Assembly (NCBI GenBank): GCA_030696105.1
Contig: JAUYNJ010000008.1
Coordinates: 18,030 to 82,029 of the forward strand
Reading direction: 5' to 3'
Length of the DNA stretch: 64,000 nucleotides
From: a bacterium
GTDB taxonomy: Bacteria; Patescibacteriota; Patescibacteriia; Patescibacteriales; UBA12465
The number at the start of each line of letters is the position of its first letter. The first letter of the stretch is position 1. The translations under genes and the position numbers were made by a program. Positions 3,699-53,938 of this stretch are shown in pieces. The notes below the pieces were generated by a model that saw only the letters and a list, made by a program, of their open reading frames with translations, had not been told where the DNA came from and did no database searches.

Positions 3699-4553
3699 AT
3701 GTTTATTGATACCCATGCCCATGTCAATTTTCGTGATTTTAAGGATGATGCCGACGAGGTAATCCGCCGGTCTTTGGATAACGACACCTGGATGGTGCTC
3801 GTTGGTTCGGAGTATAAAACCTCTAACCGCGCCTTAAATCATGCAAATCGTTATGAGCGTGGAGTATATGCGGCCGTTGGTCTGGACCCAATACATCTAG
3901 AAGAGCAAAAAGTTGAAGAAAACGACGATGATAACGGGGAATACAGCTTTACCACTCGGGCCGAAGAATTTAACTACGATACTTACGAAAAACTGGCGAA
4001 GTTTCAGAAAGTGGTCGCAATCGGTGAAATTGGTCTTGATTACTATCACCTTAATCCCACAAAAGATGTAAGCGCCGCGAAGCGCAAGCAGCAGGAAGTG
4101 TTCCTCAAACAGTTATTGCTCGCCCGTCACCTCGACCTGCCCGTTATTATTCACTGCCGACAGGCGCACGATGACCTGTATGCGATTTTACAGGATTTCC
4201 GCAAGGTATATTCCGACTTTATTCCCGCCGATCGTCCCTGGGGCGTGCTTCATTGCTTCTCCGGTGACGAGGACATGGCCTGGAAGTACTTCAAGCTCGG
4301 GCTGATTGTGTCTTTCACTGGCCTTATTACCTTCAGCAAGCAGTGGGACGATGTGTTACGTAAGATTCCTCTGGATAAGTTCATGATTGAGACCGACTCT
4401 CCCTATATGACACCGGAGCCCTACCGCGGTCGCCGTAATGAGCCGATTCTGGTACAATATGTGGCAGGGAGAATAGCTGAAATCCGCAATACAACGATTG
4501 AGAAAATTGCTGACGCAACGACTGACACTGCCCGAAGATTCTTTAAGATATAA
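3699..4553 (+). CDS. TatD-family metal-dependent hydrolase/DNase
   Basis: Motifs FIDTHAHVNF, GEIGLDY, VIIHCR, LHCFSG and ETDSPYM are the TatD metal-ligand motifs. I chose ATG 3699 as the start rather than the track's GTG at 3654. Confidence 0.85.
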   Translation: MFIDTHAHVNFRDFKDDADEVIRRSLDNDTWMVLVGSEYKTSNRALNHANRYERGVYAAVGLDPIHLEEQKVEENDDDNGEYSFTTRAEEFNYDTYEKLAKFQKVVAIGEIGLDYYHLNPTKDVSAAKRKQQEVFLKQLLLARHLDLPVIIHCRQAHDDLYAILQDFRKVYSDFIPADRPWGVLHCFSGDEDMAWKYFKLGLIVSFTGLITFSKQWDDVLRKIPLDKFMIETDSPYMTPEPYRGRRNEPILVQYVAGRIAEIRNTTIEKIADATTDTARRFFKI

Positions 4554-4602
4554 TTTAGCTTAAATTTAATAGAAAAGAGCGTAAAGTTGATTTTTATCAG
4601 AC

Positions 4603-50163: not shown

Positions 50164-51174
50164 TTAGAACTTTATAATGGTGTACGCACTGAAGGCGTGA
50201 TATACCATGTCATATCTCAGTTCGAGGATGAGGCGTCCGTAATCCGTTTTGAAGTCTTTATAGACTTCAAACGATGGAGCGAGCCTGAGAGTTGATCCCT
50301 CATGCACGCTATTAATTCCGACGGCGGCGGCAAAGTTTCTGTGGCCAATTTTTTTGCTCATTATGAGTTCATGGGTGGAACAGGCGCCACTCCTCTTACT
50401 ATCAAATTTCACCGCATAGGTACCTTTGGTACTGATGGGTGAAAAGTGTTTGTAAAAGAATATTGGCACTACCATGTAACTGGTAGCTTCAATATAGAGG
50501 TCCTGCGAGAAGAAACCTTGGTTGATTTCCCCAAACCCGGCTTGTGTCCGGAACCAATAATTCCCGTTCTGTTGCCAGTTCAGAAACGTAAAGGAACCGA
50601 AGTGTTTCAAATTCTTAGTACCGGCAAATGCCCAGTACTGATCATCCGAAACCCCCACCGATACGAAAGCGTGTTTTGGGTGAAAAGCCACCCATGCCAT
50701 GATCGCATCATCTTTACTCCACTCCTCATTAAAGGAGTGATAACCGAGAGCGTAAACCTCGGCGGTGAAAAGATGATTGGCGATGCGTGTTCCGGCGTAA
50801 TCCCAAGGGACTGCCGAGGGGCTAATCATACGGCCGATCTCCAGTAAGACATTATAGTTGCCATACTGCTTGGTGGCCCAGGCATCAAAGACGTACTGGT
50901 CGTTTTGGTCATGGTCACCCATTTTTACCACCATCGCACTGAGTGTGGTGGTGGAATCTGAGTAGAGGTTTACACCGAGACCCAATACGTCGACGGCGTA
51001 TTTCTTATAATCGTATTTCAGGTTCCACTTTTCAGTGGAAATCTCTACGCGCTGAACGGATACTTCCGAAACGGCGGTATCCATTTTAATGGTGCTTTCC
51101 AGATTAACATTCTGTCCGAAAGCTGCAATAATCATAGTCATGGCTACGGTAATCACAAATGCTACTTTTTTCAT
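50164..51174 (-). CDS. Secreted protein with beta-barrel-like features (unknown function)
   Basis: Signal peptide MKKVAFVITVAMTMIIAAFG. The sequence is aromatic- and Gly-rich with alternating hydrophobicity, and the C-terminus ...HAFSAYTIIKF ends in Phe. Confidence 0.6.
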   Translation of the reverse strand: MKKVAFVITVAMTMIIAAFGQNVNLESTIKMDTAVSEVSVQRVEISTEKWNLKYDYKKYAVDVLGLGVNLYSDSTTTLSAMVVKMGDHDQNDQYVFDAWATKQYGNYNVLLEIGRMISPSAVPWDYAGTRIANHLFTAEVYALGYHSFNEEWSKDDAIMAWVAFHPKHAFVSVGVSDDQYWAFAGTKNLKHFGSFTFLNWQQNGNYWFRTQAGFGEINQGFFSQDLYIEATSYMVVPIFFYKHFSPISTKGTYAVKFDSKRSGACSTHELIMSKKIGHRNFAAAVGINSVHEGSTLRLAPSFEVYKDFKTDYGRLILELRYDMVYHAFSAYTIIKF

Positions 51175-51337
51175 TTAATGTACATTATTTGTTGTTATTG
51201 TTATTTCTGCGCCTTTTCACGGGCATTTTTCTCAGAAATAGCAACCGCTTATCGTAACCTAATTATTTACATTTGTCAAGCTCACTGTTTAAAAAAGGCG
51301 ACCCAAATAGGCCGCCGTGAACTGTGTGCTAATTCAC

Positions 51338-51739
51338 CTAGAGTAAGTCTTTTAAAAATTCCCAGCGCAAAGGAAGCTTAACAGCCTCTTCCGGACTGAG
51401 CCATCTTATATCTAAAGCCTGCTCGTCCTTAGTTAATTCGCCGGCAGTGATATTGCCGTCAAATATAACTAGCTCAATAATGTCCTCATCGCGTCGCGCA
51501 CCCTTGTATTCTTCTTTAGAAATATGAGATTGGAATATAATAGGTCCGAGGCTGATTTGATAACCACTTTCTTCCTGCGCCTCTCTAGCTGCAGCTTGTT
51601 CAAATGATTCGCCTTCATCGACGTGCCCTCCCGGGAAGCACCATAAACCCATAGCGAGCCGCCCACCTTCTTGTAGTAACAATACTTTATTTTCCTGGCG
51701 TAGCCTGACGAAGGCGACTTTAGTTGTAGCTTGAGTCAT
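51338..51739 (-). CDS. Nudix hydrolase
   Basis: Nudix box GGHVDEGESFEQAAAREAQEESGY. Confidence 0.85.
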   Translation of the reverse strand: MTQATTKVAFVRLRQENKVLLLQEGGRLAMGLWCFPGGHVDEGESFEQAAAREAQEESGYQISLGPIIFQSHISKEEYKGARRDEDIIELVIFDGNITAGELTKDEQALDIRWLSPEEAVKLPLRWEFLKDLL

Positions 51740-51810
51740 ATAAGTATGATAAATTATTCATCCATAATAATATATCAGTCACGATTTAAAAGCACAACAA
51801 GCAATATAAG

Positions 51811-51838
51811 TTGACATATATATGCTTAGTGCTAAAAT
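51811..51838 (+). promoter_or_regulatory. Orphan strong promoter
   Basis: TTGACA (51811-51816), a 16-nt spacer, then TAAAAT (51833-51838). No downstream same-strand CDS. Confidence 0.55.
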
Positions 51839-51844
51839 TTTAAT

Positions 51845-51983
51845 AATCTCAATCGCTCTCTTATTACTAAATAGAGAAGGAATCTGAGCGTCCCGCCATT
51901 TCGAATGCCGGGAAGGCGCCTAATTGACGGCGTCAAACATGGGTAACATGAGTCTGGGGTCCTATTTTCTGGACCCCTTTTTT
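51845..51983 (+). ncRNA. Candidate ~140-nt small RNA (family unknown)
   Basis: The region between the orphan promoter and a strong terminator (GGGGTCC-tattttct-GGACCCC plus T6, 51956-51983) contains three more hairpins: TCTCT/AGAGA, CCCGCCA-tttcgaa-TGCCGGG and GGCGCC-taattgac-GGCGTC. The longest ORF here is 13 codons. Confidence 0.45.
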
Positions 51984-52090
51984 ATTAAATCTGTATCACC
52001 ATCAAGCAAAATTGGTTTAATGCCGTATATTTCTTGTCTATTCTACAATTTAATGGGGATTTTTAGAGAAATAGAGAGACGGGTGAAATT

Positions 52091-52600
52091 TTAGATTGCT
52101 GAAAAGAGTTTGTAATATTCATTCATCCTGGGCAAGAATTTTTCAGGTTGCATTTGCAGTTCCGCTTTTAATTCCTGAGGACTAAACCATTTCACCTCCT
52201 CAACTTCATTTTCTTATATCTTTAGATCATTAATATCTATATCTACCTTTGCGGTAAACCATTGGGTGAAATAATGATGCTTGCCAGTTATTTCTATTTT
52301 TGGGCCAAGTGTCGGCTTAATGTTTTTTAATCCAATTTCTTCCTCAGTTTCTTTTGTTATATTGCTCTCATAAGTTTCCCCCTCTTCGACCGTGCCAGCG
52401 ACAGCCGGCCCCCACATATTAGGGTTATTCAATTTAGTATGATGACGTTTCGCTAAAAGAATATCTCCTTGAGAATTAATAATCCATAGAGCAGAGACCC
52501 GATAAATATCATCTTCACTAACAGCGGCCCTGATTTTGTAGCCAATAATTTCATCATCTGAATTTACAATCGTAGTTTTTGGCTGATTTGTTTTATTCAT
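52091..52600 (-). pseudogene. Nudix hydrolase interrupted by one in-frame TAA (52214-52216)
   Basis: The Nudix box is GTVEEGETYESNITKETEEEIGL. After the TAA the same frame continues for 40 sense codons, ENEVEEVKWFSPQELKAELQMQPEKFLPRMNEYYKLFSAI, to TAA 52091-52093. That continuation resembles a normal Nudix C-terminus. Confidence 0.65.
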
Positions 52601-52672
52601 ATTAAATATTCTAACTTCTTATTAATTATACCAATAAACCAAATAACCCGCCATAATTTGTTGATTATAGAA

Positions 52673-52846
52673 CGCGTAGCCATAGGGGAATTATCGCGTT
52701 CGCCACGTTTTACGTGGCTCACTTGTCCAGGGTTGGCGTCCGATATGCCGCCCGGCATATCGTCCGACGCTCGATTACTCGTCTCGTCTTCCGTCTCGAC
52801 TCGTATCTCGCTTCCAACCAGTTCGATTCCCCCGACTAGCGTCGGC
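52673..52846. other. GC-rich hairpin-dense element composed of tRNA-Glu-like fragments (degenerate tRNA-derived repeat / att scar / structured RNA)
   Basis: About 56% GC by hand count, against ~23% in the 70 nt to its left. The left end CGTAGCCATAGGGGAAT is a direct near-copy of the tRNA-Glu 3' end. The right end GTTCGATTCCCCCGACTAGCG is an inverted near-copy. Several perfect internal hairpins are present. Confidence 0.5.
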
Positions 52847-52851
52847 ATAAT

Positions 52852-52883
52852 AAAAATACTCCAACTTTGTTGGAGTATTTTTA
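52852..52883. terminator. Bidirectional rho-independent terminator downstream of tRNA-Glu
   Basis: ATACTCCAAC-ttt-GTTGGAGTAT is a 10-bp stem flanked by an A-run and a T-run. Confidence 0.7.
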
Positions 52884-52888
52884 TTACG

Positions 52889-52960
52889 TAGTCCCTAGGG
52901 GAATCGAACCCCTGTTACCAGGATGAGAACCTGGCGTCCTAACCGTTAGACGAAGGGACC
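52889..52960 (-). tRNA. tRNA-Glu (anticodon CUC)
   Basis: The reverse complement folds as GGTCCCT-TC-GTCT-AACGGTTA-GGAC-G-CCAGG-TTCTCAT-CCTGG-TAAC-AGGGG-TTCGATT-CCCCT-AGGGACT-A. It is 72 nt with no encoded CCA. Confidence 0.9.
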
Positions 52961-52966
52961 TTTTTG

Positions 52967-53938
52967 TTATTCTTCAATTAAAGGCGTGTCTGATTTCACG
53001 ACTTGGCCAATGATTTCAGTCGCTCCTTTTAAAAAGTCGGAGACGTCAAGAGCGTTCCGATTTTCACGCTGTAATTTTAGTATACGTAAAGAATTTTGTC
53101 TACAGGCAAGGAAAAGCTCGTTATTTTCTGTATATATTTCACCAACCGGGCGATTATGGTCTCTTTCGTCAACTTCAGCTTTAAGAACCTTTATATGTTC
53201 ACCGCCAGGCAATTCAAGATATGTACTTGGCCAAGGATTTAAAGCACGTACGCGGCGCTCAAGCTCGGTGGCAGCGCGCATGGGCGTCAGTCGACCATTT
53301 TCCTTGGTCATTAAACCAATATAAGTAGCTTGAGTTTCGTCTTGTGGTTCCGGAATAATTCCCCCTTCACAATATAAGCGAAGAGTCGGTACAAGCACCT
53401 CAGCTCCAAGCTGTGAAAGTGAGTCGTGAAGATCACTTAAAGTTTCATCACCTTTCAGGTCAATTTTATCTTGTCGTAAAATCGGACCAGTATCAAGGCC
53501 GGCGTCCATACGCATAATTGTGACGCCAGTTTCGTTCTCACCTTTAAGGATTGGCGCTTGCAGACAAGACGCGCCCCGGTGACGTGGCAGCAGGGAAGCG
53601 TGGACATTAATGCAGCCATACTGTGGGATATCGAGAATCACTTGCGGAATAATTTTACCGTAGGCAATAACAACAATGAGGTCTGGTTTGAGGGCGGCGA
53701 TGTTATCAATTTCAGCTTTTATTTTTTCAGGCTGAATGACCGGAATACCCGCCTCTAAGGCAACTTTTTTAACTGGCGGCGCACTCAAGGTCTGTTTGCG
53801 GCCAACCGGTTTGTCCGGTTGAGTAATAATAGCAACAAGCTCAAAATCAGCGGCTGCAATTAAGGCCTTTAATCCGGGCGCGGCGAAATCGGGAGTACCC
53901 ATGAATATTGTGCGAATCTGCTTAGTCATATGCTTCAT
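52967..53938 (-). CDS. fmt: Methionyl-tRNA formyltransferase
   Basis: IRTIFMGTPDFAAPGL, HASLLPRHRGASCLQ, and a C-terminal Fmt domain. The start is ambiguous between ATG 53938 and ATG 53929; the track's TTG at 53965 is unlikely. Confidence 0.9.
   Translation of the reverse strand: MKHMTKQIRTIFMGTPDFAAPGLKALIAAADFELVAIITQPDKPVGRKQTLSAPPVKKVALEAGIPVIQPEKIKAEIDNIAALKPDLIVVIAYGKIIPQVILDIPQYGCINVHASLLPRHRGASCLQAPILKGENETGVTIMRMDAGLDTGPILRQDKIDLKGDETLSDLHDSLSQLGAEVLVPTLRLYCEGGIIPEPQDETQATYIGLMTKENGRLTPMRAATELERRVRALNPWPSTYLELPGGEHIKVLKAEVDERDHNRPVGEIYTENNELFLACRQNSLRILKLQRENRNALDVSDFLKGATEIIGQVVKSDTPLIEE

Follow-up and report, generated by a model that had tools for sequence, protein, structure and literature searches.

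A GC-rich element behind tRNA-Glu(CUC) in a Patescibacteria genome: a candidate structured RNA in a small module bounded by tRNA-derived repeats

Elements that integrate into the 3′ part of a tRNA gene, such as tyrosine-integrase islands with crossover in the T-loop, leave att-site duplications behind, and cis-mobilizable elements (CIMEs), which have no integrase, depend on a related integrase from another part of the genome. Where a genome is AT-rich, GC-rich intergenic islands can be structured non-coding RNAs (ncRNAs), which is the rationale of discovery pipelines built on GC-rich intergenic regions (GC-IGRs), and the bridge RNA of IS110/IS621, which is structured and about 180 nt long, holds guide sequences for each of the two strands of the DNA that it targets. 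Here we analyze a GC-rich element that lies behind a tRNA-Glu(CUC) gene, on the minus strand, in a 64,000-nucleotide stretch of contig JAUYNJ010000008.1 (assembly GCA_030696105.1, Patescibacteriota), which is referred to as the window. On balance, the evidence leans toward the element being the gene for a structured ncRNA of about 160 nt that belongs to no described family and sits in a 213-bp module behind tRNA-Glu(CUC) and its terminator. That the element is a selected RNA structure is the firmest component of this reading, and we consider it likely. That the module arrived by att-type integration is a tentative proposal, held at a little under an even call, and any particular molecular function assigned to the candidate RNA would be an unlikely guess at best.

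The element is 58% G+C in a window of 43%, and its flanks are 24–31% G+C (31% for 52611–52680 and 24% for 52550–52649). An initial annotation of this DNA, made from the letters alone, had put 52681–52850 at about 56% G+C, which agrees with the measured 56.5%, and the 70 nt to its left at about 23%; that side is indeed AT-rich, and the figure for 52611–52680 is the 31% given above. All other 170-nt stretches of the window that are equally GC-rich lie inside long open reading frames (ORFs), and the element is present in the window as a single copy.

A second member came from 80 metagenomic loci fetched because they encode homologs of the neighboring NUDIX protein. One of these, L114, is a different Patescibacteria contig (Joint Genome Institute contig Ga0172380_10050217) that was independently assembled, and the distance between the two hosts is apparent from their NUDIX proteins, which are only ~60% identical. 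L114 matches the element itself by nhmmer (E = 5e-5). Its layout consists of tRNA-Glu(CUC) at 49–121, an AT-rich hairpin, and the element at 171–338, which is 59–68% G+C in a locus of 35% G+C overall. The two elements align collinearly with 64% identity over aligned columns, and their cores measure 158 and 161 nt. Both start with GGGGAATCGAAC, at a distance after the T-arm of 65 nt in the window and 63 nt in L114.

On the minus strand the window element folds at −72.4 kcal/mol (z = −3.8), compared with z = −1.8 for the plus strand. In the minimum free energy (MFE) structure of the minus strand, helix P1 closes the molecule, hairpins P3 and P4 lie within helix P2, and P5 is a further hairpin. 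The parts of the predicted RNA are as follows.

52673..52848, minus: the GC-rich element, a candidate structured RNA, with its core running from 52836 to 52675
52821..52832, minus: 5′ end of the core, GGGGAAUCGAAC, an exact antisense of the tRNA T-loop and T-stem 3′ strand, identical in L114; GGGGAAU(C) within it is the 5′ strand of closing helix P1
52814..52819, minus: 5′ strand of P2, GGUUGG, with two compensatory pairs relative to L114 (GUUG/CAAC versus GCAG/CUGC)
52769..52811, minus: long hairpin P3, capped by a GGAA tetraloop; its CGAG repeats form three tandem G·A 2x2 loops
52737..52766, minus: hairpin P4, CG[GA]CGAUAUGCC-GGGC-GGCAUAUCG[GA]CG, which holds a perfect 10-bp hairpin and has two compensatory pairs relative to L114
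52731..52736, minus: 3′ strand of P2, CCAACC, followed by the conserved junction CUGGACAA (52723–52730), which reads CGGGGCAA in L114
52698..52722, minus: hairpin P5, GU[GA]GCCACGU-AAA-ACGUGGC[GA]AC, with three compensatory pairs relative to L114
52675..52695, minus: 3′ strand of P1, GAUAAUUCCCC, and AUUCCCCUAUGGCUACG, direct repeat copy 2, which reproduces the tRNA 3′ end in sense orientation

The pairings read by eye in the initial annotation are all present in the sequence or the fold: the 10-bp hairpin CGATATGCCG/CGGCATATCG (52741–52762), the hairpin GCCACG/CGTGGC, and the long-range pair GGTTGG/CCAACC. Its two CGTCTCG direct repeats, found at 52780 and 52792, are the two strands of P3 read on the plus strand. 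A 5′ extension of the window element, CGCUAGUC, is predicted to pair with the acceptor-like tail, so that P1 and the extension form a coaxial helix of ~15–20 bp. Contig L001 (Logan contig SRR13727540_6561, from the source run), which was found by an exact-protein look-up with the NUDIX protein (the same look-up with fmt returned none), stops in the loop of the P4 palindrome, at about window position 52753, and the public contig of the metagenome-assembled genome (MAG) is the sole unbroken record of the element for this organism. An assembly chimera can be dismissed for the window element, since L114 was assembled independently and is collinear with it across P4.

To compare the two members, a structural alignment was made by hand, with gaps written as N and kept column for column. 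Over the 44 pairs counted, 93% of the cells were paired; nine pairs differed at both positions, and in no pair did a single position differ. The compensatory pairs are distributed over four helices, with two each in P2, P3 and P4 and three in P5. None of 500 shuffles was as good, and every slid control gave zero compensatory pairs. With the 4-bp P2 core enforced, L114 adopts the window topology at 0.7 kcal/mol above its own MFE. Structure-preserving changes, which the initial annotation had proposed to look for in homologs, are found in one homolog, L114.

The identity of the unpaired positions is informative with respect to strand. All 2x2 internal loops read 5′-GA/5′-GA (5/5 in the window and 3/3 in L114), while shuffles gave a mean of 0.10 and a maximum of 2, and on the opposite strand the same loops would read UC/UC. 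Tandem sheared G·A pairs are a standard stabilizing motif of RNA. Hairpins are capped by GGAA in window P3 and L114 P5 and by UUCG in L114 P3, and in both members the tRNA-sense strand folds 9–11 kcal/mol better than the antisense strand. Tandem G·A loops, tetraloop caps and better sense-strand folding therefore all favor the minus strand. Considered with the modeled fold, the sequence suggests an RNA of ~160 nt with the same transcriptional direction as the tRNA. In L114 a promoter-like site, TTGTTA-17-TATAAT (142–170; 10/12), ends ~5 nt before P1, and a weak TATTAT occupies the matching position in the window. L114 has no 5′ extension, and its acceptor-like tail would be single-stranded if transcription begins at the predicted site. 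Of the three interpretations put forward initially, the one with the most support is a structured RNA that has a tRNA-like handle, given the five helices that are kept and the RNA motifs that are confined to one strand.

The termini of the element are related to the adjacent tRNA gene in both orientations. The direct near-copy, CGTAGCCATAGGGGAAT (52675–52691), matches CGTAGTCCCTAGGGGAAT (52887–52904) with 16 identities, one mismatch and one gap over 18 columns, as had been counted initially; on the minus strand this is ATTCCCCTATGG-CTACG against the tRNA tail ATTCCCCTAGGGACTACG. The inverted copy, GTTCGATTCCCC at 52821–52832, is the exact 12-mer complement of 52898–52909, in agreement with the earlier count of 12 identical nucleotides. 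Each match has a score of 24, which was reached by 5 of 2000 shuffles for the direct match and 9 of 2000 for the inverted match (GGGGAATCGAAC), and in 0 of 719 other windows of the genome for either. The similarity of the ends to the tRNA thus exceeds the shuffled control that the initial annotation had asked for, with the proviso that the two matches are not independent, because the ends of the element pair together. Within the 64 kb, the antisense 12-mer is present at its two sites only, where 0.18 would be expected with one mismatch allowed. As the initial annotation had suggested, the termini are imperfect inverted repeats: they pair over ~20 nt in the window fold, and the core of this pairing, GGGGAAU/AUUCCCC, is common to L114.

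The tRNA-derived parts are the two ends only, and the interior has no significant tRNA similarity. The description of the element as assembled from tRNA-Glu fragments consequently holds for its ends and fails for its interior, and an internal echo of the tRNA noted earlier (GGACGCCA...CCTGG) must be given up, since its 8-mer arises in 7% of shuffles and is missing from L114.

The module lies between direct repeats of the tRNA 3′ segment. In L114 the element ends in ATTCCCCTTGGGACTACTAATAA, a perfect 23-nt repeat (23/23) of L114's own tRNA tail and trailer, and in the window the repeat is the 16-identity match described above. The start-to-start distance between copies 1 and 2 is 213 bp in both. 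The L114 repeat has the TT of its own tRNA where the window has TA, so the repeat tracks the local tRNA and does not travel with the element. Because the sense copy agrees with the local tRNA in each genome, the direct repeat is the boundary of the module. A second symmetry is superimposed on it. An inverted repeat centered on the terminator loop extends ~45 nt per side, 30 nt of which are 83% complementary, and this imperfect palindrome reaches the T-arm on one side and the antisense T-arm copy on the other. In a predicted read-through transcript the antisense 12-mer could pair with the tRNA's own T-arm, an arrangement that appears in the centroid fold of the whole locus.

The order on the minus strand is fmt, tRNA-Glu(CUC), terminator hairpin, element, spacer and NUDIX gene.

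53965-52967, minus: fmt, upstream of tRNA-Glu(CUC); its protein is 87% identical to fmt of Candidatus Falkowbacteria HGW-Falkowbacteria-2, and the host is a Falkowbacteria-like bacterium
52888..52960, minus: tRNA-Glu(CUC), by ARAGORN and by the Rfam tRNA model (62.5 bits); both element ends derive from its 3′ part
52887..52904, minus: direct repeat copy 1, ATTCCCCTAGGGACTACG, running from the 3′ part of the T-loop through the T-stem and the acceptor 3′ strand to the first trailer bases
52850..52886: AT-rich bidirectional terminator-type hairpin, AAAAATACTCCAAC / GTTGGAGTATTTTT, between tRNA-Glu and the element
52601..52674, minus: AT-rich spacer of ~72 nt from the element to the NUDIX start codon, a cassette boundary outside the RNA
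52600-52214, minus: NUDIX gene, directly after the spacer

In relatives, the unit formed by fmt, tRNA-Glu(CUC) and the terminator is kept without the element in L002, L004 and L005, and the sequence past the terminator differs in each. L003 also keeps the unit without the element, on a contig that ends 85 nt past the tRNA, and L120 has tRNA-Glu, terminator and NUDIX with the element missing. L002, L004, L005 and L120 are different species with different downstream DNA, so that an exact joined-flank empty site cannot be pieced together from them; at such a site, the tRNA-Glu 3′ end would join ...CGTTCTATAATC. The window terminator is homologous to that of L002, with which it aligns, and similar hairpins follow the tRNA in L004, L005, L114 and L120. 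Since it is present after tRNA-Glu in relatives without the element, the terminator appears ancestral; a consensus terminator scan missed it because it has too few G-C pairs. Relatives that keep the tRNA-terminator unit without the element indicate that the element is an addition past this ancestral unit, or that it has been lost repeatedly.

The comparison with L002 can be followed further downstream. The segment next to the tRNA is replaced between the two genomes (50164–52848 in the window, L002:3563-5270), up to conserved genes for an ArsP permease and a thioredoxin. In the window this segment holds the element, the NUDIX gene, a second NUDIX gene and a gene for a 336-aa protein without a Pfam match, and in L002 it holds three unrelated ORFs of 105, 239 and 147 aa. 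A possible decayed remnant of the element in L002 (a GGGG...CCCC hairpin with AATAATTCCC) was considered and rejected, as nhmmer gave nothing significant and a global alignment was unconvincing.

Under the RNA reading, site-specific att-type recombination in the segment of tRNA-Glu from T-loop to 3′ end would bring in the module, which may be a miniature integrative cassette without a recombinase of its own and with the candidate RNA as cargo. Alternatively, the module could be left over from a larger element of this type; the window shows no additional tRNA-tail repeats that would delimit a larger island. Transcription would start from a promoter overlapping the downstream arm of the terminator, at a site that is easily recognized in L114 and weak in the window. 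P1 and the tail would then offer a duplicate of the 3′ strand of the acceptor/T-arm, and the candidate RNA might act by mimicry of a tRNA end, with a conserved single-stranded CGAAC that could pair with a T-loop. Our guess would be a decoy or processing handle for enzymes that recognize tRNA 3′ ends, rather than a riboswitch.

Several points weigh against this reading. With two members found, the covariation evidence is thin, and the pair counts are biased because the alignment was hand-fitted to the fold. The compensatory changes are all from Watson-Crick to Watson-Crick pairs, which means that they choose neither a strand nor between RNA and folded single-stranded DNA. Transcription of the element is a prediction from sequence; a consensus scan revealed no promoter ahead of the window element, and no clear terminator was seen after it. 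The degenerate 3′ repeat, together with a premature stop in the NUDIX gene, raises the possibility that the window copy is decaying. With respect to integration, the homology of the window terminator to that of L002 is easier to reconcile with insertion past an ancestral terminator than with a textbook crossover within the tRNA. Pfam searches across 42–64 kb (ORFs of ≥140 aa and shorter ORFs adjoining the element, ~10 kb around it) found no integrase, transposase or reverse transcriptase, as the initial annotation had remarked for integrases. Finally, the proposed mobility is drawn from just two lines, the repeats and the patchy distribution. These points notwithstanding, the rival explanations taken up below account jointly for the conserved helices, the length, the retained G+C and the tRNA-derived ends less well than the RNA reading does.

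The rival that survives best is a functionless DNA scar, in which a decayed duplication of the tRNA-Glu 3′ end, left by old integration and excision or by snap-back at the terminator, was later invaded by GC-rich palindromes. We consider it unlikely. Neutral DNA in genomes of 35–43% G+C should drift toward AT richness, and both members remain at 58–61% G+C; moreover, copies that are ~64% identical keep five helices, their length, the 213-bp repeat spacing, the strand-specific tandem G·A loops and the tetraloops. The scar does have the merit of accounting for direct and inverted tRNA-end copies that flank the element and for an extended palindrome centered on the terminator. It also fits the variation in the DNA after tRNA-Glu, seen even between close relatives, the nonsense codon in the adjacent NUDIX gene, and a comparable case at another tRNA. 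At L121:159-396, tRNA-Ser(UGA) is followed by 74 nt with a hairpin and then by a partial copy of its segment from anticodon loop to 3′ end, in which the T-loop is interrupted by a perfect 20-nt GC palindrome, CCTGCCTGCCGGCAGGCAGG. The L121 copy is an att-type scar with a possible small mobile palindrome, and it offers a precedent for duplications of tRNA 3′ ends in these genomes. An att-site scar was among the interpretations of the initial annotation, and it has partial support from the tRNA-tail direct repeat, from closer relatives that have no element and from the lack of an integrase within ~10 kb; the structurally conserved interior is unlike that of a decaying scar.

The gene downstream invites a different explanation, in which the element is a cis-acting leader of the NUDIX operon, either riboswitch-like or a protein-binding 5′ untranslated region. 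Both members precede a co-oriented gene that belongs to a single NUDIX family; the window element ends 72 nt ahead of the NUDIX ATG, and in L114 the promoter-like site at 142–170 would drive the element, a 131-aa ORF and then NUDIX. Adjacency of tRNA-Glu and NUDIX recurs in L120. We nonetheless regard a leader as quite unlikely, because more than 80 loci with homologs of the window NUDIX have no element, and neither do the contexts of six NUDIX homologs. The genes immediately downstream also differ: NUDIX in the window, and in L114 an ORF of unknown function (361–753) without a Pfam match, which precedes NUDIX (803–1306) and a pterin dehydratase gene. No terminator/antiterminator and no platform that sequesters a Shine-Dalgarno sequence is visible, and a leader leaves the sense and antisense tRNA copies unexplained. 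Furthermore, an extended −10-like sequence, TGGTATAAT (52625–52633, minus), intervenes between the window element and the NUDIX start codon, in a stretch homologous to a terminator-plus-promoter region that precedes NUDIX in other genomes. Judged from this sequence, the NUDIX gene probably has its own promoter past the element.

The window NUDIX gene is interrupted by an in-frame TAA at 52214–52216 (minus), where all close homologs have Gln (CAA). Read through to 52091 (52091–52600) it would have 169 codons, compared with 167–170 aa in homologs, and it is either a recent pseudogene or the product of a sequencing error. Seven relatives at 59–67% identity to the window or L114 NUDIX (P0022, P0044, P0120, P0126, P0143, P0146 and P0151) are named by their sources as DPANN-type archaea (Woesearchaeota, Pacearchaeota, Nanoarchaeia and Diapherotrites), which suggests cross-domain transfer of this small gene.

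From GGCTACGCG, the last bases of the element, the spacer is homologous to DNA that elsewhere follows an AT-rich repeat upstream of NUDIX (nhmmer E = 5e-6 versus L086). This repeat, AAAATTTCCGCCCACYTCTCAATTTCTCCAATAATCCCGTCAAAATTTTGAGAAATTTCAGACTTTAAGACTAC, is 80 nt long, ends in ...AAGACTAC, and is present in several copies per locus, always in one orientation. The genomes that carry it, L082, L084, L086, L089 and L090, have the NUDIX genes closest to that of the window. The repeat sits between small genes, usually with a terminator-like hairpin after it, and flanks NUDIX on both sides; the neighboring genes vary between genomes, as at the boundary of a cassette. Its copies are located as follows.

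L082:835-922, 3848-3935, 4506-4593: AT-rich repeat
L086:34-121, 2301-2388, 3843-3930, 4510-4597: AT-rich repeat
L084:650-737, 1307-1394; L089:1065-1152; L090:2898-2985: AT-rich repeat
Window 52045-52092, minus: decayed copy of the AT-rich repeat, after NUDIX
L003:4025-4059 (Parcubacteria MAG): half copy, TTTTGAGAAATTTCAGATTTTAAGACTAC, 7 nt after tRNA-Glu(CUC), followed by a terminator; the contig ends 44 nt on

Rfam returned nothing for the AT-rich repeat, which also lacks a consensus fold and a conserved ORF; its final ~9 nt are similar to the 3′ end of tRNA-Glu. We rejected the notion that it is an AT-rich version of the whole element, since homology is limited to these ~9 nt and the DNA that follows, and a consensus fold is lacking. 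The tRNA tail, the end of the element and the end of the AT-rich repeat all finish in (G)(A)CTAC at points where gene content changes, a sequence pattern that hints at recombination at sites resembling the tRNA-Glu tail.

An extension of this idea is that the module is a self-contained, RNA-centered mobile unit, whose RNA would steer a recombinase encoded elsewhere to the tRNA-Glu 3′ end by means of its sense and antisense copies of the T-arm/acceptor region, as bridge or guide RNAs do. The same class of site (…GACTAC ends) would then bound NUDIX and other small cassettes with the AT-rich repeat. We rate this as a long shot; if true, it would amount to an integron-like, RNA-specified cassette system in Candidate Phyla Radiation (CPR) bacteria, anchored on a tRNA gene.

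The distribution of the element bears on a further proposal of the initial annotation, that of a tRNA-derived transposable element present in many copies, in the manner of miniature inverted-repeat transposable elements or short interspersed nuclear elements (MITE/SINE-like). DNA searches covered the 64-kb window, ~170 other loci, viral contigs and a phage database. The element was found once among the ~170 other loci, in L114 and at the same tRNA site. A covariance model, R1, which gives the window element 148.9 bits, recovered the two training sequences and nothing further from the window and ~90 loci. Four DNA patterns taken from the element found nothing in viral contigs, or chance matches in coding DNA, the pattern for the AT-rich repeat found nothing in them, and a blastn search of phages returned phage tRNA-Glu genes only. 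A MITE/SINE-like origin is therefore very improbable for an element that has a single copy in 64 kb and no real match among viral contigs or phages. The imperfect terminal inverted repeats of ~20 nt (P1), flanking direct repeats and patchy distribution do recall such elements, but the 17–23-nt 'duplication' is the tRNA tail rather than a short random target-site duplication, and tRNA likeness is confined to the ends.

Least credible of all, and almost certainly wrong, is the view that the element is coding sequence of an 83-aa ORF (52848–52597, minus), which is recorded in NCBI as MAG hypothetical protein Q8Q67_04045 and whose stop overlaps the NUDIX start codon in a coupling-like ATGA, since this ORF has no homolog besides itself among 5.8 billion proteins, no Pfam match and no equivalent in L114, and the alignment gaps are not multiples of three. 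The annotated 'hypothetical protein' over the element is probably not a gene, and the conservation of the ORF that the initial annotation had weighed as a competing signal is not seen.

Known RNA families were considered as well. Neither member matches any of the 4227 families of Rfam 15 at the gathering threshold. In a search of 52550–53000 up to E = 10, only chance matches overlapped the edges of the element or the terminator, and the same was true of L114; the best matches overlapping the element reached 16–22 bits, against thresholds of 60–171 bits. A tRNA or transfer-messenger RNA (tmRNA) is rejected, because ARAGORN reports only tRNA-Glu at 52888–52960 and the Rfam tRNA and tmRNA models are unmatched, with the same result for L114; the initial annotation had likewise been unable to fold the element into either. 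Signature motifs of signal recognition particle RNA, 6S RNA, RNase P RNA, group II domain V, integron attC sites and T-box leaders are absent by eye, and Rfam returned none of them. Retron msr-msd and IS110 bridge RNA were set aside for want of an adjacent reverse transcriptase or DEDD recombinase, the neighbors being fmt, tRNA-Glu and NUDIX. No described counterpart came up in searches of the literature.

If confirmed, the element would represent a new structured RNA family from the poorly charted CPR/Patescibacteria, with a closing helix made from sense and antisense copies of the 3′ end of a neighboring tRNA and att-like repeats around the whole unit. Such an arrangement may let an RNA take on tRNA identity in a new way, perhaps in its 3′-end processing or by decoying toxins or enzymes that recognize tRNA ends, or the module may be the smallest integrative unit with a cargo yet observed at a tRNA gene. 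Either outcome would bear on the exchange of small cassettes among streamlined genomes.

How, then, does the locus compare with the systems described at the outset? The IS110/IS621 bridge RNA serves as a lead only. The element is similar in size, multi-helical, and has a sense and an antisense copy of adjoining sequence; it differs in that there is no adjacent DEDD recombinase and no Rfam match, and its copies mostly pair in P1 rather than lying in internal loops. Like att-site elements and CIMEs, the module has a direct repeat that spans the T-loop, the 3′ end and a few trailer bases and that agrees with the tRNA beside it (23/23 in L114), the tRNA gene is left whole, presence varies among relatives, and, as in a CIME, there is no recombinase of its own. 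Unlike att-site elements, which measure kilobases, it is 213 bp long and has no integrase within 10 kb. It also has an extra, antisense T-arm copy, in place of genes its interior holds a conserved RNA-type structure, and its upstream terminator appears to be ancestral and unfit for a simple crossover inside the tRNA.

As in the tRNA-like domain of tmRNA, the Y RNA YrlA, the MALAT1/mascRNA 3′ end and viral tRNA-like structures, the terminal helix of the predicted RNA copies an acceptor/T-arm. The element departs from these in having no T-loop, no D-arm analogue and no encoded CCA, and ARAGORN and the Rfam tRNA, tmRNA and mascRNA models are unmatched; in L114 the acceptor-like tail has no 5′ partner, and no Rsr/Ro or SmpB context was seen. 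In the window, P1 and its extension resemble an acceptor–T-arm minihelix, from which the rest of the predicted RNA emerges at the position of the T-loop. In comparison with ncRNAs discovered through GC-IGRs, the element stands apart in that its termini derive from the adjacent tRNA, direct repeats bound its module, and it belongs to none of the 4227 Rfam families. It shares with them a GC-rich, hairpin-dense, intergenic character, compensatory changes between homologs, and hairpins closed by GNRA and UNCG loops.

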